From the NCBI GenBank assembly GCA_963575745.1, contig CAUYUJ010000103.1:372001-436000 (forward strand): 64,000 nt of DNA, written 5' to 3'. This DNA comes from Prorocentrum cordatum (lineage: Eukaryota). The notes beneath the pieces were generated by a model that was not told where the DNA came from, made no database searches, and saw only the letters and a program-made list of their open reading frames with translations. The translations under genes were made by a program, and so were the position numbers. Position 1 is the stretch's first letter. Every line of letters begins with the position of its first letter. This document shows positions 5,386 to 27,603 of the stretch, in pieces.

Positions 5386-6033
5386 ATGGAGGTATCGACC
5401 CTCAAGATCACCACCCACCACAACCCCCCAGACCCAGACATGGAGAGGACAGTCGTGATAGGAGGTTTACAGTCGTTCGGGAGCCTGGAGGAGGCGAAGG
5501 GGTGGTTGAGGAATAAGCTCTGGGATTTGTATGGGCCGCAGCCCAACGAGGTGTACGTGAAGGGGGAGTTTCGTGGACTGATCTTTGCTAAATTTCCCGA
5601 CGGCGGGGATCGGGACACGGTGGTAGGCCTATTTCGCAAAGCTTCTATCTGGGAAGGGGGGGGGGGGAACAAGGTTTGGGCGAAAGCGGACCAGCCCCTA
5701 GAGAAGCGTGTCCTCTCTTCATTCGCATTCGGCCTGAAGTACCTGATGAAAGAATGGGGGTACGAGGCGAAGGCGGTGTGGGCAGACCCCGAGGACGGCA
5801 AGGTGTGGCTGGGCACGGAAATGGTCTCCCACGCGACGATCGACGGAGGCAAGCTTCAGGTGACGCACGGCCATGGCTGGGACTCTTGGCTGAACGACCC
5901 GGCCTACCCTGGCTTTCCGGATCTCGTGTCCAGGCTGAGCGGCAAGGTCGAAAATGGCGCCTCCAAGGGTAGCGGAAAGATGGGGGCAAAGGGAAAACCA
6001 AAAGGGAAGGGCCGTGGACAACATGGCAAGTAG
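5386..6033 (+). CDS. LINE ORF1-like protein (possible RRM-like fold, G/K-rich tail)
   Basis: Normal-complexity ORF directly upstream of the endonuclease; TVVIGGL and VYVKGEFRGLIFAKF resemble RNP2/RNP1; ends GKMGAKGKPKGKGRG. Confidence 0.6.
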   Translation: MEVSTLKITTHHNPPDPDMERTVVIGGLQSFGSLEEAKGWLRNKLWDLYGPQPNEVYVKGEFRGLIFAKFPDGGDRDTVVGLFRKASIWEGGGGNKVWAKADQPLEKRVLSSFAFGLKYLMKEWGYEAKAVWADPEDGKVWLGTEMVSHATIDGGKLQVTHGHGWDSWLNDPAYPGFPDLVSRLSGKVENGASKGSGKMGAKGKPKGKGRGQHGK

Positions 6034-14285: not shown

Positions 14286-14888
14286 CTCCTCATGCCCCTC
14301 CTCCCCTCCTCCTCCTCCTCCTCCTGCGCGTCCTCCTCATCTGCCACCCCCTCCGAGGACAGGCGACCGATGACCGACGACGGACGACGACGACGCTGGC
14401 GACGACGACCACGACGATGACCGACGACAGACGACCGACGACGACGATGCAGTCGATGACCCACGACGACGACGATGACCAATGGACGACGTCCGACGAC
14501 GACGACGACGACGGACGACGACACGATGACGATGACGACGACAAGCCCTGGAGGACCCCGAGTCGGATCCAGCCGCGTGCACCCCCGCAGAGACCTAGCA
14601 CGGAACAACAACACCCAGAGGAGGAAGGGGAGAAGGGGGGAGGAAAAGAAAGATAATGAGGGGGAGGAACGATTAGCAGTAGGATCGCGATGACGTCATG
14701 GTAAGGAAAAGGAGGGATGTATGCGAGCAAACGGTGGAAGCCAGAGCCTGTAGCAAGAGGCACCGCTAATGCGCCGAAGCCCACAGCACAGGGGCAATTT
14801 GAACCACAACCTCAAGATTGCAAACCACGACCTTATGATTCTCGCTTTGTAGTAGACGTGTGAATAATCGGGGTATTGGTCGTACTCA

Positions 14889-14891
14889 GTT

Positions 14892-14947
<56 letters not shown>

Positions 14948-14967
14948 CGTAGTCGTAGTAGTAGTAA

Positions 14968-15056
<89 letters not shown>

Positions 15057-15083
15057 TAGTAGTAGTAGTAGTAGTAGTAGTGT

Positions 15084-15150
<67 letters not shown>

Positions 15151-15196
15151 CGTAGTCGTAGTAGTCGTAGTCGTCGTAGTAGTCGTAGTAGTAGTC

Positions 15197-15247
<51 letters not shown>

Positions 15248-15320
15248 TAGTAGTTAGTAGTAGTAGTAGTAGTAGTCGTAGTCGTAGTCGTAGTCGTAGT
15301 CGTAGTAGTCGTAGTATTAT

Positions 15321-15357
<37 letters not shown>

Positions 15358-15505
15358 CGTAGTCGTAGTAGTAGTAGTAGTAGTAGTGGCGGTCGTAGTA
15401 CCAGTAGTAGTTGTACTAGTAGTTGTAGAAGTAGTAGTCGTAGTGGTAGCAGTCGTAGTCGTAGTAGTAGGCTGTCTGGTAGACGTAGTCGTAGCCATTG
15501 TAGTT
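14889..15505. repeat. (GTA)n microsatellite
   Basis: Direct inspection. Confidence 0.97.
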
Positions 15506-15507
15506 GT

Positions 15508-15559
15508 ATTTCCAGTCTGTACGCAGTTTATTCAGAGCGGGAGGGGTTGGTTCCGAAGG
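15508..15559 (+). repeat. Direct repeat A1 (5' terminus of the YR element)
   Basis: atttccagtctgtacgcagtttattcagagcgggaggggttggttccgaagg recurs at 22228-22280 and 22564-22616. Confidence 0.92.
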
Positions 15560-15576
15560 TGATTTGGTTCAGGCCA

Positions 15577-16014
15577 ATGCACTCCGCCCAGCTCCCGTGG
15601 GCGGCGGCGGTCGTCGCCGGGCTGGCTTGGATTTCACAGGCGCTGCGTCCGCAGGCGACGCTCCCGATCGCGGTCCCGGAGCCGCGGGTGACGCACGAGC
15701 TCGCCTGCTCGTGCGAGGAGGAGCTGCGCGAGCTCGTGCGGGCTCGGGGCGAGCTGGAGTGGTTCCGGCTCTGCGTGGTGGCCTTGCTCGCCGCCTGCGT
15801 GGTGCTGGCGGTCTGCGTGGCGGCGCTCGCGCTGCTGGCGGCAGGCTGCTGCTGCTGCGCAGGCGGGGAGCGGGCCGCAGGTCGGCGGCGCGACGTCGCG
15901 CGGGCGGCGCCTCAGGCCGCCTTGCCCAGCCCCGAGCTCCTCTCGCAGCTCGCGGCTCGTGAGGTTCGGCGGGCGCGATGGCTGCCCCCGTCGCCGACGT
16001 CGAGCGGGCTCTGA
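15577..16014 (+). CDS. Small predicted membrane protein (hydrophobic N-terminus, short helical segment, TM helix, CCCC, basic tail)
   Basis: MHSAQLPWAAAVVAGLAWISQAL...CSCEEELRELVRARGELEWFRL CVVALLAACVVLAVCVAALALLAAG CCCC AGGERAAGRRR; first ORF after repeat A1; overlaps the gag-like start. Confidence 0.55.
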   Translation: MHSAQLPWAAAVVAGLAWISQALRPQATLPIAVPEPRVTHELACSCEEELRELVRARGELEWFRLCVVALLAACVVLAVCVAALALLAAGCCCCAGGERAAGRRRDVARAAPQAALPSPELLSQLAAREVRRARWLPPSPTSSGL

Positions 16015-17150
16015 CGATCGAGGAGCCCAGGTGCTGCTGCGGGACCCGACGCACCCCGCCCACACGTGGCACCACCTCATCTTGTTGCGGCGGCTGCGCG
16101 ACGCGGTGTGGCTGGTCATTTCGGCGCCGGAGGCGGTCGAGAGCGTGGACCTCTCGACGGTGGCGCTGGTAGCGCTTGCGCCAGGGGCCGCGGTGGCCGC
16201 GGGTCAGGCCGGGGATTGCCGGATGTGCGACGACACGGTCGTCGCCAGGCTGCCCGGCCTCCGCGCGCAGGCCGCGCGGCTGGCTGCTGTGCTGGGCGCC
16301 CCCTCGCCCGGCTCGCCCGTGGGCGCCGCCGCCTCGATCGGGCGCGTCGCAGACACCTCGGCCGTCGAGTTCGGCGAGGAAGTGGCCGGCGACATTGTGG
16401 GCAGCCCCGCAACGGGGATGACGCGTGGCCCGGTCGGGCTCGCGCTGGCGGGCCATCCGGGCCGTTGGCTCGCCGTCGAGCTGGTGCCGCGCGCGCAGGT
16501 CGCGGCGCGGCAGCTCGACCAGCACTGCGGCGCGGGGCGCGACGCCAGGATCGCGGCTCCGCCCGCGTCCGACTCAGCGGCGGGCACGCGCCAGCTCGGC
16601 AGCGTGCTCGGCGCCTTTCGGCCCGTCGACCTAGCGAGGGTCCCCGCCTGGCCTCGCGCTGGGCCTCGCGCCGTGGTCGAGCTGGCGAAGGGCATCCACG
16701 GGCTAGGGCTGACAGCCGCCGCGCATCACGCCAGCTGGGTGCGGGCGTCGGGCGCGCACAGCGAGAGCGCCGTGGCCTGGGAGCACAAGTTGCAGCGCCA
16801 GGTTCTCGGGCTGGCGGCGGGGCACGACGGGTTGGGCCCCGCCAGTTGTGCCTCACTCGAGCTCGCGGCGCGGCGCGTGGTCCAGATCGAGCGCGCTGTG
16901 ATGGCGAACCCCAAGGCGCCCAGCTTCGAGGGCCTGCACCGGATGATCGAGCACGTGCAGGACAGGCAAGGAGGCGCGCAAACGCGGGAGTTCACCGCCC
17001 ACGTGGCGCAGCAGGCCGAGAGCGAGGCTCGCATCTTGAAGCAGAACCGCCTGCTGCGCGAGGAGCTGGAGGCCAAGTGGAAGGACAAGGACAAGGGAGG
17101 ACAGGGGCAAGGACAAGGACAACTAGGGCCAGGGCGCGGCCCCGCCGGCG
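15978..17150 (+). pseudogene. gag-like ORF of the YR retrotransposon (frameshift near 16030; end approximate)
   Basis: MAAPVADVERALTIEEP then QVLLRDPTHPAHTWHHLILL...LELAARRVVQIE...EARILKQNRLLREE...KDKDKGG; position upstream of RT. Confidence 0.65.
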
Positions 17151-17395
17151 CGTGGTCCCAGCGGCCGGCGGGTCTTTCTCTTTGGGGCACTCTTCCGCTC
17201 CCTTGCGCGACTACGGGGGCGAAGACTCCGCTGCGTCAGCAGCCGATCTCGAGACTGGGGCAGGGCACGAACCTTCAAGAGGCGTGGCGCTCTCCGCCCT
17301 GTCTCGGGCGCAACCTCGACGCCCCCTTCTACAAGGGCTTCGAGGCAGTGAACTCGACTTTCGGGCGTGCTCAGCTTGGCAGCGTCGAGCTTTGA

Positions 17396-18830
17396 TGCGT
17401 GTTCGCGCGGCCCTTGCTCCTATGCTCCGGGAGCCGCTGCAGGAGAATGAGGCTGGCGCGCTGTCCGACCTCCTCCACTCTGACGACTTGTACACTCTGA
17501 CTGGGTGCGCCGCGCTGGGCGCCTATGACCCCTCTCGCTTGCGGGTGGCCCGCGGGGATCTGCGCCCAAAGGAGGTGGGCGACATCGCGCCCCCCGAGGC
17601 GGCAGTCTTCATCCGCGGCCCCGCGACCTATATCTCAAGACTGATGCTGCGCTGGCGGCCGACTTGGACGCTGGCGCTCTCCGCGGCCAGCCGCACTGGT
17701 GCCCCGTCCTCAAGGGGTCGCGCCAGACCATGGTCGACTTCCTGGGGGCCCTGCACTCGGGGGGGGCTCCTCACCTGGCGCCAGCGTGCGCGCAGCCGCG
17801 TCGGGTGTTTCTCTGTGAAGAAAAAGGATGGCATGCTGCGCCTGGTGCTGGACGCGCGCTGGACTAACCGCATGTGCCGGAAGGCGCCGCTATCACGCTT
17901 GGCAGCCCCGAGTGCACTGGCGAGGTTGTCCGCTTCGCGCGAGGCCCTGGCGCTAGAGGAGGTCGAGCTGCGGGCCGCAGGTGCGTCCGCTGCTGGCCGA
18001 CGACGCAGGTGCGGACCACGAGCTTTGCGGCTTCAGCGTCGGCCTCACCGACGGTTTCTACCAGTTCAAGAGCGAGCGGATGGCGAGTTACTTCGGCCTG
18101 GACTTCGCTCTCCGTCGACGAGATCGAGGCCGTGTTCGGGATTGTCTTGCGAGACATCTTCGACGAGCTGGAGTGCGGGCCCAGCCCGGTCTCACCGCGC
18201 GAGCGCCTCGAGGCGTGCTTCCTCGGCATGGCGATGGGCTGGAGCTGGGCGCTCCACTTCTGCAACGAAGCGATCAGCGACGTCATGCGGGGCGCGCTTG
18301 AGACGCTCGGGCTCCCGCGCACGCCGGTGGGGGACCGCCAATATCCTGCCGCCCGCCACCCCTGGGCTCCCGCCATGGCCCCCTGCGTCGACAACGCGAA
18401 CACGTTGGCACTTGGGGCCGATCACGGCCGGGCGGTCTTCAAGGTCGTGGTGGAGGGGCTCGAGGCGCGCGGCTTGGTGCTGCAAGACCATGTGGACGCT
18501 GCCCCCCGCTTCGAGTTCCTGGGCATGGTGCTGGACGGCCCCGCTCGACGCCCACGACGCACTCCGAGGCGTAGCTGGCGACTCTGGCTGGCCCTGGGTC
18601 ATGTACTTCGGTCGCGACGATGCTCGGGCGACGGTCTTCGCGTCTTGCTCGGCCACCTCTGTCATCATTTCGGCCTCGGGCCCGCCTGTCTCAGCTGCTT
18701 GCAGAGCGTCTACCGCTTCACGTTCGACCACCTGGGCCAGGTCAAGATGGTGCCAGCCGAGGTGTGGGGCGAGCTCTGGGCGCGCCGCGCCCTCGTGCTC
18801 TTCGTCGACGCCAACCTGGACCGCGGCTTC
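17396..18830 (+). pseudogene. Reverse transcriptase (DIRS-like), several frameshifts, catalytic motifs degenerate
   Basis: CFSVKKKDGMLRLVLDARWTN; VGLTDGFYQF (DLxDxFYQ-like); MAMGWSWALHFC; PCVDN (YxDD-like); FEFLGMVLD. Confidence 0.88.
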
Positions 18831-19500
18831 TACCATCGCGTCTTCAGCTCGGACTCCTCGGGCGGAGGGCGCGGCGGCTTCGCGCTCCACGAGACGCCGG
18901 CCAGCGCCTTGCGGCTGGGCTCGGCCACTGGAAGGAGCGCCAGCGGTTTTGCGAGGTGCTCCGGGCCGGCTTTCGGGGGCCCGGCTCCGCGCCCAGCGCT
19001 GCGGCGGCGGTGGCGGCTGAGCCAGGCGCCGAATGGGCTGACGGCTTTGCTGGCCCAGTGCAGAGCGATTCGCGGCGGCCCGACGCGTCGCTGAGCGTGG
19101 TGGAGCGCTCGCGTCGCGAGGTTGCCTGCAACCAGGAGGGCATCCCGAGCGCCTCGCGCTGGATCACCCATCCCGGTCGGTGGCGACTCGTGCCGGTCGG
19201 GGCGTGGAGCGGCCCAAGCGTGACACTTCCGATCCACGTCTTGGAGTGCCGCACGTCGCTCATGGGCCTCCGGCGGGCCGCCGTCTCGACCGCCGCGGAG
19301 GACACGGTGGTGGTCTCGCTGGGGGACGACATGGCGGACGTGTTGTCGACGGAGCGTGGGCGGGCTTCGGACTTTGGCCTCAACGCGCTGTGCCGGCAGT
19401 CCTGTGCGTGGCAGCTCGCGGCTGGGCTCGACTGGCGGCGTCGCTGCATCGAGTCTTCTCGGCGCGTCTCGGATCACGACTCGCGCCGAGCTCATCGGGG
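18831..19500 (+). pseudogene. RNase H domain (DIRS type), frameshifted
   Basis: VFSSDSSGGG..GFA; PIHVLECRTSLMGL; VVSLGDDM...RGRAS; RRCIESSRRVSDHDSR follow the D-E-D-D pattern. Confidence 0.8.
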
Positions 19501-19699
19501 AGAGTTGCAGCCTGGCGACATCTTCGCCCCCCCGGCCAAGCAGCGCAGCATGGATTGGCAGCGCTGCGCCGCGGTGGCCGGCCAGCTACAGGCTCGCAGT
19601 CGGCCCCGACCCGTCGTCAGCCCGCCGCCGCCTCCATCGCAGCAGGCGACTGGCGGCAGAGGGGTCCAGTGCGCAGACCGGGTGGCGGCCCCCGCTGCC

Positions 19700-20350
19700 C
19701 GGCGTTTTTTTTTTTTTTTTTTTTTTTTTTGGGGGGGGGGGGGGGTATTTTTTTGTTGTTTGCTCTCTCAGTGTGCGGCCCCTCCAGGCAGGACTGGCGG
19801 TCGCCTGCCCCGTCGAGGTAACAGACGGAGCCCATCTCGACCTCTTGGACCCCAAAGTGATCAGCTTGGTGCTCCAGTGGATCTCTCAGGGCCGCGTCTG
19901 GAACGTTCGTTTCGGCGCCCCTTGGGGGCCGCGCATTCTGGGGCGGCCGTCTTGGGGCGCGAGTGCGCGGGCGTCTCGGCGAGGTTCTTGAGGGCAATAC
20001 AAAAGGCATCTCGGAGGCACGCGACATGCATTACGGTCGAGAACCCGGTTTCTTCAGCTCTGTGGAATTGGGATCCTATGGCCTCTGTCCTCAAGTCCCT
20101 CAATGCCGAGTTCGTCTCGTTCGACATGTGTAGGTTCGGGACCCCCTACAAGAAGCCCACGAGGTTTTCCTTCACGCTCCTTCAGCTGAATGAGTTTATT
20201 GATCTTCGGTGCGCGTGCTCGGGGCCTCATTTGACCATGCAGAGTCAGGTCACGACCCCGTGCTTTGGCAAGTCTCGCAGCGCGTGGCTCACCGAGCTGG
20301 CTGGGAAGTACCCCCCACGCCTCTGCGCGGGCGTGGCGCAGTGTGCGCGG
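19700..20350 (+). pseudogene. C5 cytosine DNA methyltransferase-like domain, degenerate
   Basis: AGLAVACPVEVTDGAHLDLLDPKV..WISQGRVWNVRFGAPW (motif IV G-x-P-C with C>W), ITVENPVSSALW (motif VI-like), FDMCRFGTPYKKPTRF (motif VIII-like); expected FxGxG position is occupied by a polyT/polyG run at ~19706-19755. Confidence 0.62.
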
Positions 20351-20926
20351 CTGTCGGCGCCCGCCCTCGCGACTCTCGGCCATGGCGCACCCGCTTGGAG
20401 CTGGACAGCCGTGGAGGCCGCCGTCCGAGCCCGGCAGCCGCTCCCCTGGTTACGTCCGCCTCGATGTCTGGCCAGAATGGTTTTTGGCTGGTGGCGGGCT
20501 GCCGGCTCCTGGGGCGCACGCTGCCCCCCTGAATGGGCCCGCGTCCCACGTCGGCCCTGGCCGTTGGAACTCCGAGGCCGACCAAGCGAAGTTCCGAGGC
20601 GATCGACGTCGAGGCCGAGCCGCCCGCGGTTGCCCCGAAGGTCAAGCGTGTCCTGCAGCCGACGTCGAAGCGCGTGGCCAGGCCCGCCGCCGCCGCCCCG
20701 CCCTCGGTGACCGACGCTGCGCTCGTGGCGGTGCCGGGGCGTCGGAGCGCTCGCGGAGGCCTGCCGCGGCGGACGTGCCCTCGCCAAAGGCTGCGACCAG
20801 GATCGCTCGCAGGCAGGTCGAGGGGGCGGCCGGGCCGAGCCTGATGCTCTCGGACCTCGCGCAGGTGGAGGTGCGCTCAGTGTCGGACGAGACGCCCACG
20901 CGTTCGCCGAGTTCGAGCTCCGCGCG

Positions 20927-21880
20927 TTGCAGGCGGGCCACCGGAGGGGGGCGCTCGACGACCGCGACAGCCTGGACCAGGTCGCGGCGGAGTACACCAA
21001 CGACGAGATGTATTTGAAGGGCGCGGACGCGTGGGCGCCGCGCGTGCTGATGTGCGCCATCATCTTCGCCAAGAGCCTGGCCAAGGGCAGCTTGCCTCGC
21101 TGCCGCCGCGCCATCAAGGGCTTCCTGAAGGGCGAGCCGCCGACGTCAGAGGATCCGCGCCCCGTCGAGGCCGCCGCCATCCTGGCCGAGGACCTCTTCG
21201 AGCGCGGCGACCCCGTCGCCGTCGAGTCGGGCCTTGCCTTCCCGGTCCAGTTCGATGCCTTCCTGCGGCCCGGGGAGGCGCTGAAGCTCAAGATGGGGGA
21301 CGCGGTGCTCCCGTCGGCCGCCGGGTACATCGAGACCTGCGTCATCGTCGCCCAGCAAACGCAGAAGGGCCAGGCTCCGACGCGGGGGGCGAAGTCAGGC
21401 GAGTACGACGACACCGCGGTCGTCGGCCTGCCCGGCCTGGGGCCCAGCTTCGCCCCGGCGGTGTTGCAGCACCTCCACAAGCTCACGAAGACGGGGAAGC
21501 TCCTCTTCGAGCCCCTCAACCTGGCCCGCTGCGAGAAAGAACTCAAGGCGGCGGTGGCCAGGTTTCGCCTCGACCACCTCGGGATCACCCCCCGCGGCGC
21601 CCGCCGCGGTGGGCTCGGCACGGCCGCCCGCCGGAACCTCCTCTCGCTTGGCGAGATCAAGAAGCGCGGGCGCTGGTTGACCAGCAAGAGCGTGGCGCGC
21701 TACGAGAAGAAGGGCACTCTGCTGCGCCAGATATCGTTGATGGGCGCGAGGGATGTCGCCCTCGGTGCAGCTCTGCTCGAGATCAAGCGGGGCTCGACCG
21801 CCTCGACGATCGGCTCGCCCGCAGTGCGCATGGCGGCTAACATCGCGAGGATCCGCCGTGGTCAGCAGCTGCGCGACTAA
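20927..21880 (+). CDS. Tyrosine recombinase (phage integrase family) of the retrotransposon
   Basis: FDAFLRPGEALKL (R), AKSGEYDD (K), TPRGARRGG (HxxR with H>R), KKRGRWLTSKSVARYEK (W...Y nucleophile). Confidence 0.88.
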   Translation: MQAGHRRGALDDRDSLDQVAAEYTNDEMYLKGADAWAPRVLMCAIIFAKSLAKGSLPRCRRAIKGFLKGEPPTSEDPRPVEAAAILAEDLFERGDPVAVESGLAFPVQFDAFLRPGEALKLKMGDAVLPSAAGYIETCVIVAQQTQKGQAPTRGAKSGEYDDTAVVGLPGLGPSFAPAVLQHLHKLTKTGKLLFEPLNLARCEKELKAAVARFRLDHLGITPRGARRGGLGTAARRNLLSLGEIKKRGRWLTSKSVARYEKKGTLLRQISLMGARDVALGAALLEIKRGSTASTIGSPAVRMAANIARIRRGQQLRD

Positions 21881-22010
21881 GGCCGGATAGCAGTCTGGTA
21901 GTCCTTCGCCCAATCACGCGGGTGCTTCGAGTTAGCCGCCTGAAGGCCTGGTTTTTATGGCTTGTCCCAATGCCCACCCACCCTGGAGACAAGACCAATA
22001 GTTGGCAGTT

Positions 22011-22710
22011 TGGCAGGATTTCCTTGTCGCTCTTGTTTTTTATGTGTTTATGCCGCTGGATCTGATGTGATCCCGCTCAATGTGGATTCCTCGGCGCGTC
22101 GCCGAGCCTTGAGTCACAAAGATTGGCGCCCCTCGCTCTGCGTCTTTCTTTCTCGTCATGGGCTCATCTCTGTGGCTATGCGCCTGTTCCGCCAGCATCC
22201 GTAATGCCCCCGCCAGCGTCGATAATAATTTCCAGTCTGTGCGCAGTTTATTCAGAGCGGGAAGGGGCTGGTTCCGAAGGCGCCCAGCCCGCCCTCCCCT
22301 TTTTGCCTTTGAACCGATCGCGTTGCTCTGTTGTATGTAGCTGTGCTGGCAGGATTTCCTTTTCGCTCTTGTTGTTTATCTGTTTATGCCGCTGGATATG
22401 ATGCGATCCCGCTCAATGTGGATTCCTCGGCGCGTCGCCGAGCCTTGAGTCACAGGGATCGCTGCCCCTCGCTCTGCGTCTTCCTTTTTCGTCCTGGGCT
22501 CATCCCTGCGGCTGTGCGCCTGTGCCGCCAGCATCCGCAATGTCCCCGCTAGCGTTGATAATAATTTCCAGCATGTACGCAGTTTGATTCAGAGAGGGAG
22601 GGGTTGGTTCCGAAGGCGCCCAGCCCGCCCTCCCCTTTTTGCCTTTGAACCGATCGCGTTGCTCTGTTGTATCTAGCTGTGCTGGCAGGGTTTCCTTTTC
22701 GCTCTTGTTG
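22011..22710 (+). repeat. ~336-bp tandem duplication containing repeats B and A (B1-A2-B2-A3)
   Basis: tggcaggatttcctt at 22011 and 22347; gctcaatgtggattcctcggcgcgtcgccgagccttgagtcaca in both copies and again at ~26377. Confidence 0.92.
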
Positions 22711-22822
22711 TTTTTCCCAACCCTCCTGCGTTGGGTTCTCGTTTTGAATAGAGCACTGCTCGCGCGAACCTTCCTTCCTTCCTTCCCGTCCCTCTCTTCC
22801 CCCCTGCCTTTGGCTTCGCTCG

Positions 22823-25800
22823 TCGCCATCCCTGGGGGGCTGCGATCTGTGAAACTGTCGCCACTTTCGAGGCCTGCTGGGGGGCCCAGCACAGTGGGCA
22901 CTCACTGCAGATGCAAATGAGACCTCGCCATCCCTGGGGGGCTGCGATCTGTGAAACTGTCGCCAATTTCGAGGCCTGCTGGGGGGCCCATCACAATGGG
23001 TACTCACCGCAGATTCAAATGGGAGCTCGCCATCCCTAGGGGGCTGCGATTTGTGAAACTGTCGCCACTTTCGAGGCCTGCTGGAAGGGCCCAGCACAGC
23101 GGGTACCCACCGCAGATTCAAATGGGACCTCGCCATCCCTGGGGGGCTGCGATCTGTGAAACTGGTGCCACTTTCGAGGCCTGCTGGGGGGGGCAGCACA
23201 GTGGGTGCTCTCCGCGGATGCAAATGGGACCTCGCCATCCCTGGGGGGCTGCGATCTGCGAAACTGTCGCCACTTTCGGGGGCTGCTGGGGGGGCCCAGC
23301 ACAGTGGGTACCAACCGCAGACGCAAATGGGACCTCGCCATCCCTGGGTGGCTGCGATCTGCGAAACTGTCGCCACTTTCGAGGCCTGCTGGGGGGGGGC
23401 CAGTACAGTGGGCACTCACCGCAGACGCAAATGGGACCTCGCCATCCCTGGGGTGCTGCGATCTTTGAAACTGTCGCCACTTTCGATGCCTGCTGAGGGG
23501 CCCAGCACAGTGGGTACTCTCCGCAGACCCAAATGGGACCTCGCCATCCCTGGGGGGCTGCGATCGGTAAGCTGTCGCCAGTTCCGAGGGCTGCTGAGGG
23601 GCCCAGCACAGTGGGTATTCACCGCAGATTCAAATGGGAGCTCGCCATCCCTGGGGGGGGGGGGGGGAGCTGCGATCTGTGAAACGTTCGCCACTTTCGA
23701 GGGCTGCTGAGGGGCCCAGCACAGTGAGCATTCTCCGCAGACCCAAATGGGACCTCGCCATCCCTGGGTGGCTGCGATCTGGGAAACTGTCGCCACTTTC
23801 GAGGCCTGCTGGGGGGGGCCCAGCACAGCGGGTACCCACCGCAGATTCAGATTAGACCTCGCCATCCTTGGGGGCTGCGATGTGTGAAACTGTCGCCACT
23901 TTCGATGGCTGCTGAGGGGCACAGCACAGTGGGTACCCTCCGCAGACTCAAATGAGACCTCGCCATCCCTGGGGGGCTGCGATCTGCGAAACTGTCGCCA
24001 CTTTCGAGGGCTGCTGGGGGCCCAGCACAGTGGGTACCCACCGCAGACCCAAATGAGACCTCGCCATCCCTGGGGGGCTGCGATCTGTGAAACTGTCGCA
24101 GCTTTCGAGGCCTGCTGGGGGGCCCAGCACAGTGTGTACCCACGGCAGACTTAGATTAGACTTCGCCATCACTGGGGAGCCCAGCACAGTGGATATTCAC
24201 CGCAGGTGCAAATGGGACCTCGCCGTCCCTCGGGGGCTGCGATCTGTGAAGCTGTCGCCACTTTCGAGGGCTGCGGGGAGGGGCCCAGCACAGTGGGTAC
24301 CCACCGCAGATTCAAATGGGACCTCGCCATCCCTGGGGGGCTGCGATCTGTGAAGCTGTCGCCACTTTCGAGGCCTGCTGGGGGGGGCCCAGCACAGTGG
24401 GTACCAACCGCAGACGCAAATGTGACCTCGCCATCCTTGGGGGGCTGCGATCTGTGAAACTGTCGCCACTTTCGAGGCCTGCCGGGGGGGGCAGCACAGT
24501 GGGTACCCACCGCAGACTCAAGTGTGACCTCGCCATCCCTGGAGGGCTGCGATCAGTGAAGCTGTCGCCACTTTCGAGGGCTGCTGAAGGCACAGCACAG
24601 CGGGTACTCACCGCAGACCCAGATTAGACCAAACCATCCCTGGGGGGGGGGGGCTGCGATCTGTGAAACTGTCGCCACTTTCGAGGCCTGCAAGGGGGGG
24701 GCAGCTTTGTGGGCACCCACCGCAGATTCAGATTTGACCTTGCCATCCCTGGGGGGGCTGCGATCTGCGAAATTGTCGCCACTTTCGAGGGCTGCTGAGG
24801 GGCACGGCACAGTGGGTATTCACCGCAGATTCAAATGTGACCTCGCCATCCCTGGGTGGCTGCGATCTGGGAAATTGTCGCCACGTTCGAGGCCTGCTGG
24901 GGGGGGGCCCAGCACGGCGGGTACCCACCGCAGATTCAGATTACACCTCGCCGTCCCTGGGGGGCTGCGATCTGTGAAACTGGTGCGGCTTTCGATGGCT
25001 GCTGAGGGGCACAGCACAGTGGGTACTCTCCGCAGACTCAAATGGGACCTCGCCATCCCTGGGTGGCTGCGATCTGCGAAACTGTCGCCACTTTCGAGGG
25101 CTGCTGGGGGCCCAGCACAGTGGGTACCCACCGCAGACCCAAATGAGACCTCGCCGTCCCTGGGGGGCTGCGATCTGTGAAACTGTCGCCACTTTCGAGG
25201 CCTGCTGGGGGGCCCAGCACAGTGGGCACCAACCGCAGACCTAGATTAGACCTCGCCATCCCTGGGGAGCCCAGCACAGTGGATATTCACCGCAGATGCA
25301 AATGGAACCTCGCCATCCCTCGGGGGCTGCGATCTGTGAAGCCGCCGCCACTTTCGAGGGCTGCGGGGAGGGGCCCAGCGCAGTGGGTACCCACAGCAGA
25401 TTCAAATGGGACCTCGCCATCCCTGGGGGGCTGCGATCTGTGAAACTGTCGCCACTTTCGAGGCCTGCTGGGGGGGGGCCCAGCACAGTGGGTACCAACC
25501 GCAGACGCAAATGGTACCTCGCCATCCCTGGGTGGCTGCGATCTGTGAAACTGTCGCCACTTTCGAGGCCTGCTGGGGGGCCCAGCACAGCGGGTACCCA
25601 CCGCAGACTCAAATGGAACCTCGCCATCCCTGGAGGGCTGCGATCAGTGAAACTGTCGCTACTTTCGAGGGCTGCTGAAGGCACAGCACAGCGGGTACTC
25701 ACCGCAGACTCAGATTAGACCTTGCCATCCCTGGGGGGGGGGGGGGCTGCGATCTGTGAAACTGGCGCCACTTTCGAAGCCTGCAGGGGGGGGCAGCACA

Positions 25801-26113
25801 GTGGGCACCCACCGCAGCTTCAGATTTGACCTCGCCATCCCTGGGGGGCTGCGATCTGCGAAACTGTCGCCACTTTCGAGGGCTGCTGAGGGGCACAGCA
25901 CAGTGGGTATTCACCGCAAATTCAAATGTGACCTCGCCATCCCTGGGTGGCTGCGATCTGTGAAACTGTCGCCACTTTCGAGGGTTGCTGAGGGGCCCAG
26001 CACAGTGGGTACGCACCGCAGACTCACACTAGACCTTGCCATCCTTGGGGGGCTGCGATCTGTGAAACTGTCGCCACTTTCGAGGGCTGCTGATGGGGCA
26101 CAGCACAGTGGGT
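22823..26113. repeat. ~102-bp satellite, ~32 units, with an ~1090-bp higher-order repeat
   Basis: Unit ctcgccatccctggggggctgcgatctgtgaaactgtcgccactttcgaggcctgctggggggcccagcacagtgggtacccaccgcagattcaaatgggac; starts at 22924, 23026, 23129, 23231; the same 57-bp deleted unit at ~24162 and ~25252. Confidence 0.96.
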
Positions 26114-26346
26114 TTCCCGCACGTTTTTCTCCGGCTTTTCGTTCCCGACTCCACATATCCTCTTCGAGCGTGTAGTTGTCGCCCCTCGTTCTTGTATGGT
26201 TCTCCTGCGCATCATGCCATAGGCGCGTGTCCCAAGTAGCTTACAGATCAAATAACGAATCCTGCAATTTGATTGTCCGTGCAAGTTTCGGCCCACTCCT
26301 GGTTTCCCATGATACAAATGGGTTGGGTACGTCACAGGGCAATTTC

Positions 26347-26524
26347 TGTGTATGCCGCTGCATATGATGCGACCCCGCTCAATGTGGATTCCTCGGCGCG
26401 TCGCCGAGCCTTGAGTCACAGAGATTGGTACCCCTCGTTCTGCGTCGTGCTTTCTCGTCCTGGGCTCATCGCTGTGGCGATGCGCCTGTTCCGCCAGCAT
26501 CCGCAATTCCCCCGCTAGCGTTGA
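26347..26524 (+). repeat. Third copy of repeat B
   Basis: tatgccgctg...caatgtggattcctcggcgcgtcgccgagccttgagtcaca...ccagcatccgcaa...ccgctagcgttga matches ~22384-22558. Confidence 0.92.
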
Positions 26525-26554
26525 GAATCATGAATAATCGGGGTATTGATCTTA

Positions 26555-26790
26555 GTAATAGTAGTAGTCGTAGTAGTAGTAGTAGTAGTAGTAGTAGGAG
26601 GAGGAGTAGTAGTAGTAGTCGTAGTAGTAGTAGTAGTAGTAGTCGTAATAGTAGTAGTAGTAGTAGTAGTCGTCGTCGTCGTCGTCGTCGTCGTAGTAGT
26701 CGTAGTAGTCGTAGTAGTCGTAGTAGTCGTTGTAGCAGTAGTAGTAGTAGTAGTCGTAGTAGTAGTAGTAGTAGTAGTAGTAGCAGTAGC

Positions 26791-26862
<72 letters not shown>

Positions 26863-26917
26863 CGTAGTCGTAGTCGTAGTCGTAGTCGTAGTCGTATTTG
26901 TAGTAGTCGTAGTAGTC

Positions 26918-26954
<37 letters not shown>

Positions 26955-27405
26955 GAGTAGGAGTAGGAGTAGTAGTAGTAGTAGTAGTAGTAGTTGTAGT
27001 TAGTCGTAGTCGTAGTCGTAGTCGTAGTCGTAGTCGTAGTCGTAGTCGTAGTCGCCGTCGTAGTCGTTAAGTCGTAGTCGGTAGTCTAGTCGTAGTCGTA
27101 GTCGTAGTTGTAGAGTCGTAGTCGGCAAGTCCGTAGTCGTAAGTCGTAGTAGTAGTTAGTAGTAGTAGTAGTGTGTAGTCGTAGTAGTAGTAGTAGTAGT
27201 CTTATAGTCGTAGGTAGTAGTAGTAGTAGTAGTAGTCGTAGTAGTAGTAGTAGTAGTAAGTAGTAGTAGTCGTAGTCTAGTCTAGTAGTAGTCGTAGTCG
27301 TAGTCGTAGTCGTAGTCGTCTCGTGGTCGTCGGGTAGTCGTAGCCGTAGTAGTAGTAGTAGTAGTAGTAGTATAGTCGTAGTAGTAGTCGTAGTATAGTG
27401 TAGTC

Positions 27406-27443
<38 letters not shown>

Positions 27444-27484
27444 TAGTAGTAGTCGTAGTAGTCTTAGTAGTCGTAGTAGTAGTC

Positions 27485-27554
<70 letters not shown>

Positions 27555-27603
27555 CGTAGTAGTAGTAGTAGTAGCCGTCGTAGTGGTAGTAGTAGTGGTA
27601 GTA
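26555..27603. repeat. (GTA)n/(GTAGTC)n microsatellite
   Basis: Direct inspection. Confidence 0.97.

Follow-up and report, generated by a model that had tools for sequence, protein, structure and literature searches.

We examined a 64,000-nt stretch of the Prorocentrum cordatum genome (contig CAUYUJ010000103.1, positions 372,001 to 436,000; hereafter the window) and, within it, a tyrosine recombinase (YR) retrotransposon that occupies positions 15508-26531 on the + strand. Its parts follow one another in the order A1-ORF0-gag-like ORF-Pol-YR-B1-A2-x-B2-A3-x-B3, where A and B are split direct repeats, x is a spacer, and ORF0 is a leading open reading frame (ORF) for a small putative membrane protein. 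A Pfam scan of 10 window frames returned no relevant family, and the modules were identified through intact relatives instead. All six modules of the original prediction, which had been made from the sequence alone, were recovered in this way; they are collinear, lie on the + strand, and are spread over three + frames of 15500-22000. The position proposed there as the end of the element, 21880, is the stop of the YR ORF, and the element continues to 26531. We consider it very probable that this is a dead split-direct-repeat YR retrotransposon of the SymbioDIRS-Dnmt3 kind in Prorocentrum, and we are just as confident that ORF0 is a genuine additional gene of the element. A dead element of this kind with one additional genuine gene is quite probably the best explanation of the locus overall.

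A metagenome scan yielded five related loci (L001-L005). One intact relative, L001, carries ORF0, gag, a single frame for reverse transcriptase (RT), RNase H, and methyltransferase (MTase), and then the beginning of YR. L002 is 96.6% identical to L001, while L003-L005 (3/5 loci) begin too near gag to show ORF0. Among viral contigs, none of 16 and none of 22 candidate stretches were confirmed and there were no pattern matches; for prokaryote genomes, the corresponding figure was 0 of 3.

Repeats, ends, and a nested insertion

Repeat A is 52-53 nt long, and its three copies start at 15508, 22228, and 22564 (pairwise 47-50/53 identical). A1 (15508-15559) forms the 5' end of the element, begins with an AT core, and is identical to A2 (22228-22280) at 50/53 and to A3 (22564-22616) at 49/53 positions. 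Repeat B is 219 nt long and also has three copies, 194-198/219 identical: B1 (22011-22229), B2 (22347-22565; 198/219 identical to B1), and B3, which is split into 22683-22716 and 26347-26531. The split direct repeats that had been proposed are confirmed. The B1-A2 join corresponds to the model circle junction. The stretch 22281-22682 holds a first spacer x, B2, A3, and a second spacer x, and TRF reports a period of 336 at 91%, with the two spacers identical at 65/66 positions. The element thus has one additional B-A-x unit of 336 nt beyond the standard A1-B1-A2-B2 layout. A head-to-tail junction was also seen in L002, where positions 1-2073 run from the end of YR through an 870-nt 3' region, which includes a 104-nt direct repeat, into A, ORF0, and gag. 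We did not adopt a YR-first gene order for L002, since the nearly identical L001 starts YR after Pol; the junction may be a circle, a tandem, or an assembly join.

An AT core is common to both outer junctions and both inner B-A junctions, and no further duplication was seen there. The established model, in which the recombinase integrates a circle, expects a core of this kind without other duplication. The ends of the element are not linked by any long inverted pair. The right end abuts a GTA microsatellite unit at its head, which also occurs at 14863. The element lies precisely where one such unit ends (tail, 14863-15507) and the next begins (16-nt head, 26532-27603); an identical 16-nt head precedes both GTA arrays, and a target preference for headed microsatellites is possible. 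Near the 5' ends, window positions 15488-15500 and L001 positions 299-345 bear a short apparent likeness to the dinoflagellate spliced leader. On the + strand, positions 27897-30630, immediately past the 3' microsatellite, look like coding sequence: the region is long, rich in GC, and poor in introns, has Cys-rich motifs, and is perhaps another mobile element ORF.

B3 is interrupted by a 3.6-kb insertion (22717-26342) that is foreign to the retrotransposon. The left part of B3 (22683-22716) and its right part (26343-26531, with the AT core last at the 3' element end) overlap by exactly 4 nt, a duplication found at 22713-22716 and 26343-26346, and together sum to 219 nt. Once joined, B3 is identical to B1 and B2 at 194-197/219 positions (194/219 for B1). 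A 102-nt satellite unit spans 22823-26113, within the 3626 nt between the B3 halves. In two public runs, many contigs with differing left flanks join at 22709-22714, with depths of 3162 and 201 compared with single or double figures over the element. Because of the 4-nt duplication, the whole B3 that results from joining, and the many flanks, we conclude that the satellite is a later insertion. A satellite-bearing 3' repeat region had been put forward as part of the element's design; the satellite is indeed present, but we rejected it as an element part, since it sits in the insertion that splits B3. The insertion itself is high-copy, with ~32 satellite units and unique ends of ~105 and ~230 nt, and it behaves like a mobile satellite-bearing element, given that its left end joins many flanks in the public runs.

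Coding modules and decay of this copy

The Pol N-terminal region and RT occupy 17212-18910 (+), as judged from tblastn with intact relatives, a profile alignment, and an RVT_1 match in the relative P0055. They are followed by a DIRS-type RNase H-like domain (18860-19530, +), which shows collinear matches to intact Pol relatives, and by a compact C5-cytosine MTase domain at the Pol C terminus (19690-20515, +). Across 17212-20515, 9 of the 13 proteins of at least 900 aa among the hits match RT, RNase H, and MTase in that order (tblastn), and two of these nine continue into YR. RVT_1 was matched in one of 11 Pol relatives (2e-7, Pfam). The RNase H label draws on the DIRS motifs (DSS, E, DN, and D), with no Pfam match. 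A single ORF for RT, RNase H, and MTase is found in L001 and the long relatives; the window version is broken by frameshifts. P0055 has ~400 additional residues between RNase H and MTase that resemble an off-frame of another gene, and it may be an example of the other published layout, in which Pol contains YR.

The C-terminal half of the MTase has 742 representatives at E<=0.001, and Pfam DNA_methylase was found in just 1 of the 29 relatives scanned. These relatives carry motif I (FxGxG), PC, ENP, and the C-terminal motif, as do C5 enzymes. The catalytic Cys is present in 107 of the 112 relatives with a residue at that column (another 38 do not cover it); with 5/112 lacking the Cys, a catalytically dead subfamily is not supported. 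A model of the P0018 domain (pLDDT 83) has DNMT3B/3A at Foldseek ranks 1-3 (E 1e-6) and at VIA ranks 1-2 (Z 11.3, rmsd 3.7, 193 aligned). Judged by motifs and modelled fold, the C-terminal domain of the Pol relatives is a C5 MTase, which bears out the cytosine-MTase-like domain proposed between RNase H and YR. Its affinity is likely to Dnmt3 on the modelled fold. Weighing against such an affinity, MET1, M.HhaI, DIM2, and Dnmt2 all lie within 1 Z of DNMT3B/3A for the same model; the sequence profile matches DNMT2 at E 0.0018.

The YR ORF (20382-21880, +) overlaps the end of Pol, has its own ATG at 20382, and lies in a different frame from Pol. Its core (20894-21880) has eight homologues, the best being P0001 (86% identical), which is labelled a Prorocentrum cordatum protein at NCBI; nr also assigns this protein to Polarella glacialis. 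Phage_integrase (Pfam) was found in 6/11 YR relatives (best 9e-4), and the YR profile matched no recombinase structure in the PDB by sequence. In L001, YR is likewise separate and starts at 5893.

ORF1 (15978-17125, +) has an ATG at 15978, a frameshift near 16025, a profile match over 16025-17125, and 13 homologues at 41-65% identity. It stands at the position of gag, which is the sole basis of the gag label: a model of its homologue P0160 (pLDDT 70, pTM 0.32; no Foldseek match at E<=0.001) yielded no capsid fold, and the best VIA match (Z 6.3) is a coiled coil. The gag module of the original prediction therefore stands as a conserved ORF at the expected place and not as a recognized capsid. 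Residues 12-175 of the P0160 model (window 16025-16530) form two small domains resembling beta barrels, which match SH3/Tudor-like folds weakly (E 0.2-0.4); a helical domain and then a long C-terminal helix follow.

The window copy is dead, as its degenerate look had suggested. Frameshifts interrupt the gag-like ORF, Pol (several), and YR, and the ORF0 stop is lost; of the 247 columns conserved in gag, MTase, and YR, 204 show no change. In RT, the first catalytic Asp has become Gly (18041) and YVDN reads CVDN (18384); the RNase H-like domain keeps its DSS, E, and D motifs, with DN reading DD. The MTase has T and G runs in place of motif I, PW for the catalytic PC, and a frameshift near 19935, with ENP retained. 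In YR, both His residues of the HxxRH motif are changed to Arg, the R, K, R, and Y residues are retained, and the N-terminal half is frameshifted. P0001 carries the same two His-to-Arg changes. At 19705-19762, where the T/G homopolymer runs stand in place of motif I, a contig from run X1 spans the site with 28 fewer letters, so the homopolymer expansion belongs specifically to this copy or to its assembly.

Among the 31 unambiguous changes at the 247 conserved columns, A>G (9) and T>C (6) compare with G>A (3) and C>T (1). Strand-specific A-to-G editing was rejected as the cause of decay, since the excess of A>G and T>C is strand-symmetric. Decay in 16025-21780 thus runs from AT to GC (15 vs 4 of 31), with several changes giving rise to CpG sites; methylation of CpG should leave the reverse pattern. 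The CpG observed/expected ratio is 1.08.

Evidence for ORF0

ORF0 (15577-15978, +; ~133 aa) starts at the sole ATG between A1 and gag and has a positional counterpart in L001 and L002. A Kyte-Doolittle scan revealed a weak hydrophobic segment at residues 5-23 and a strong one at 59-98; the latter is 40 residues long with a hydropathy of 3.2, and 58 residues precede it. The predicted protein also has a cluster of four Cys adjoining this segment, a basic patch (3-5 K/R within 15 residues after the transmembrane [TM] segment), a Pro/Ala linker, and a conserved C-terminal helix. GC content by codon position is 0.81/0.59/0.90, compared with 0.78/0.55/0.90 for gag, and codon bias matches gag along the entire ORF. 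This codon-position contrast was reached by 0 of 20000 shuffles (1/20000 with the TM part removed) and is absent in two 3' noncoding controls. Positions 15693-15902 are matched without a gap, and with 9 differing letters, by a 210-nt contig of run X2.

The ORF0 of L001, whose gag is 37% identical, is 207 aa long and occupies the equivalent position; its hydrophobic segments span residues 22-45 and 112-136, the second followed by basic residues. Its stop overlaps the gag ATG, and the ATGA junction of this type is also found in L004. In the window, the codon that aligns with the stop of L001 also overlaps the gag ATG, and a single transition would turn it into a stop; from this we infer stop-start coupling here too. 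The last 13 residues of the two proteins are identical at 9/13 positions, a value reached by none of 100000 shuffles, and within the 9 identical codons there are three synonymous third-position differences. All three ORF0 sequences (window, L001, and L002) start with MH. Called proteins of the L001 type fall in two clusters, in which 7/7 members keep the hydrophobic segments and the C terminus, and the shifted frames of L001/L002 ORF0 contain stops and have pN/pS values of 0.9-1.0. The codon-position test, the L001 counterpart, and the C-terminal identity agree with the leading small membrane ORF of the original prediction. We note that neither ORF0 leader contains an out-of-frame ATG, where 2-4 ATGs would be expected by chance.

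Several observations weigh against ORF0 as a genuine gene. Homology is limited to two lineages, and the alignment between them is weak outside the termini, with a middle that is barely alignable and a best local alignment that is off-register (shuffle p 0.0035). Constraint is much weaker than in gag, with pN/pS between L001 and L002 of 0.55 (p 0.08) in ORF0 versus 0.05 in gag. P0181, 1 of the 7 cluster members, has a frameshifted ORF0 N terminus, and a search with the window ORF0 against 2822 candidates of 79-254 aa returned no homologue at E<=1. Searches of the ESM Atlas gave only sub-0.9 matches for the window ORF0 (TMIE, SMIM, and Flu M2), which serve as leads only, and none for the L001 ORF0. 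Known from two lineages, the coupled membrane ORF is, judged by its sequence, very probably real and apparently undescribed.

Relation to known elements and possible roles of ORF0

As described in the accessible text of de Mendoza et al. 2018 (PMC5890265), SymbioDIRS-Dnmt3 elements carry a DNMT within Pol, give YR an ORF of its own, have A-coding-B-A-B repeats, and occur in two domain orders; they are under purifying selection and have de novo CG activity in yeast. The element shares with them the C5 DNMT in the RT-RNase H ORF, the separate YR ORF, the A-coding-B-A-B repeats, and a dinoflagellate host. It differs in its Prorocentrum host, outside Symbiodiniaceae, in one additional B-A-x unit, and in the leading membrane ORF; the text of PMC5890265, figures aside, mentions neither transmembrane nor gag. 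The MTase, which had been counted as part of a combination of features not known from any element, thus matches a published design. Methylase cargo and repeat design are already known, and ORF0 is what remains new; the case for an undescribed system loses two of its three novel features (MTase and satellite) and keeps the membrane ORF, for which we found no description. In the accessible literature naming SymbioDIRS, the word transmembrane was not found, and a dinoflagellate genomics review has, in its available text, no DIRS entry. More broadly, we found no report of a transmembrane ORF in YR elements in a search whose scope excluded subscription journals, Repbase, and paper figures, any of which could show ORF0.

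Other families share fewer features, going by the available parts of their descriptions. Ngaro/PAT-like elements have gag, RT-RNase H, YR, and A1-B1-A2-B2 repeats in common with the element, and no protease or DDE integrase was seen; Ngaro lacks an MTase, whereas the element has a C5 domain and ORF0 (PMC3783388). DIRS proper has inverted repeats and an N6-adenine Dam domain, in contrast to the direct repeats and C5 motifs found here (PMC3783388). DAM-DIRS, DAM-LTR, and EpiLTR also have MTase cargo added to Pol, but theirs are adenine or DNMT4-like cytosine enzymes in long terminal repeat elements, and no membrane ORF is mentioned in the portion of the source available (10.64898/2026.05.21.726589).

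We propose the following life cycle for an intact copy. In line with established DIRS/Ngaro biology and with the accessible text of PMC5890265, RNA from A1 to the last B would be reverse-transcribed and closed into a circle whose junction copies B-A. The Pol-linked MTase would CpG-methylate the cDNA in cis, so that the new copy resembles host DNA (as proposed in PMC5890265), and YR would insert the circle by way of a short core sequence held in common, AT in this case, without duplicating other sequence. Scanning ribosomes would make ORF0 first, and Gag would follow by termination-reinitiation at the overlapping stop and start. The presumably cytoplasmic C-terminal helix of ORF0 may then recruit Gag or the ribonucleoprotein (RNP) to a membrane, either the endoplasmic reticulum or the nuclear envelope. 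The dinoflagellate nuclear envelope stays closed at mitosis, and a membrane tether would be useful in such a host. Hence, we tentatively suggest that ORF0 is a tether that recruits Gag or RNP for particle assembly or nuclear delivery, a role that its features make possible, if somewhat short of probable. A broader picture, which we regard as unlikely, is a YR lineage of marine protists whose Gag-coupled membrane protein moves the particle into the closed nucleus or, as a non-myristoylated fusogen, from cell to cell.

The conservation pattern of ORF0 could be read in other ways. Conservation centres on the final codons ahead of gag, the remainder is weakly constrained, and out-of-frame ATGs are missing from both leaders (albeit where few were expected), as if ORF0 were mainly a translational control leader that sets Gag output by stop-start coupling, with its 3' end acting as an RNA signal and its hydrophobicity a by-product of GC-rich codons. 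We think this unlikely given the synonymous differences among the 9 identical codons, the length and hydropathy of the strong segment, the gag-equal codon bias over the whole ORF, and the hydrophobic segments retained in every cluster member. Long open frames are common in GC-rich DNA, and one might go further and regard the window and L001 ORF0 as unrelated chance frames in GC-rich leaders, in keeping with the low similarity of their middles and the low Atlas scores; however, the codon-position test, the anchored C-terminal identity, the shared start dipeptide, the same stop position relative to gag, and the stops and near-neutral pN/pS of the shifted frames leave this reading very improbable.

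If ORF0 is a real membrane protein, it might serve ends other than a tether. A comparable case is sORF2 of Drosophila MDG1-group gypsy elements, considered together with FAST proteins: a small TM ORF that precedes gag and carries a basic patch behind its TM segment. The ~133 aa of the window ORF0 and 207 aa of the L001 ORF0 fit the size range of 60-210 aa given for such proteins (10.1101/2025.03.14.642691, as far as its text is available). By analogy, ORF0 could be an envelope-independent transmission factor, a small fusogen moving particles between cells, for example at gamete contact; the Cys cluster alongside the TM segment and the spread of the family over many marine records would suit it. 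Yet the MGxxxS/T myristoylation motif occurs in no ORF0 seen (0/7 cluster members begin MG), and the window ORF0 has a pair of hydrophobic segments, the main one preceded by 58 residues, unlike the single TM segment and 10-50-aa ectodomain of sORF2/FAST (10.1101/2025.03.14.642691). sORF2 also belongs to another retrotransposon order, and the overlap of the ORF0 stop with the gag start, which in the window copy is deduced, sets ORF0 apart from it; the available preprint text does not mention DIRS or tyrosine recombinase (10.1101/2025.03.14.642691). The L001 ORF0 lacks the Cys cluster, and thecate single cells probably have little membrane contact, so we regard a fusogen as decidedly improbable. 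Hardly more probable is a self-maintenance or host-modulating protein (a membrane toxin, antidote, or anti-silencing factor) made from a short 5' transcript. SymbioDIRS transcription is biased to the 5' region, with Pol and YR not covered, in the accessible text of PMC5890265, and ORF0 evolves fast, like conflict genes; against this, ORF0 has no partner ORF and no family match, and its coupling to gag points to a joint assembly role.

We therefore return to the tether as our working suggestion. To our knowledge, descriptions of YR retrotransposons list gag, pol, and YR alone and include neither a membrane protein nor a way to leave the cell. A conserved gag-coupled membrane ORF would offer a handle on how such elements reach an unopened nucleus, and on whether they move between cells or species. 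Dnmt3-type cargo would extend beyond Symbiodiniaceae to a large family mostly missed by Pfam. On the broader and unlikely picture of a protein that carries the particle through a membrane, ORF0 would give the DIRS order its first gene of an envelope-like or membrane-trafficking kind, alongside a methylase that would disguise the incoming copy.

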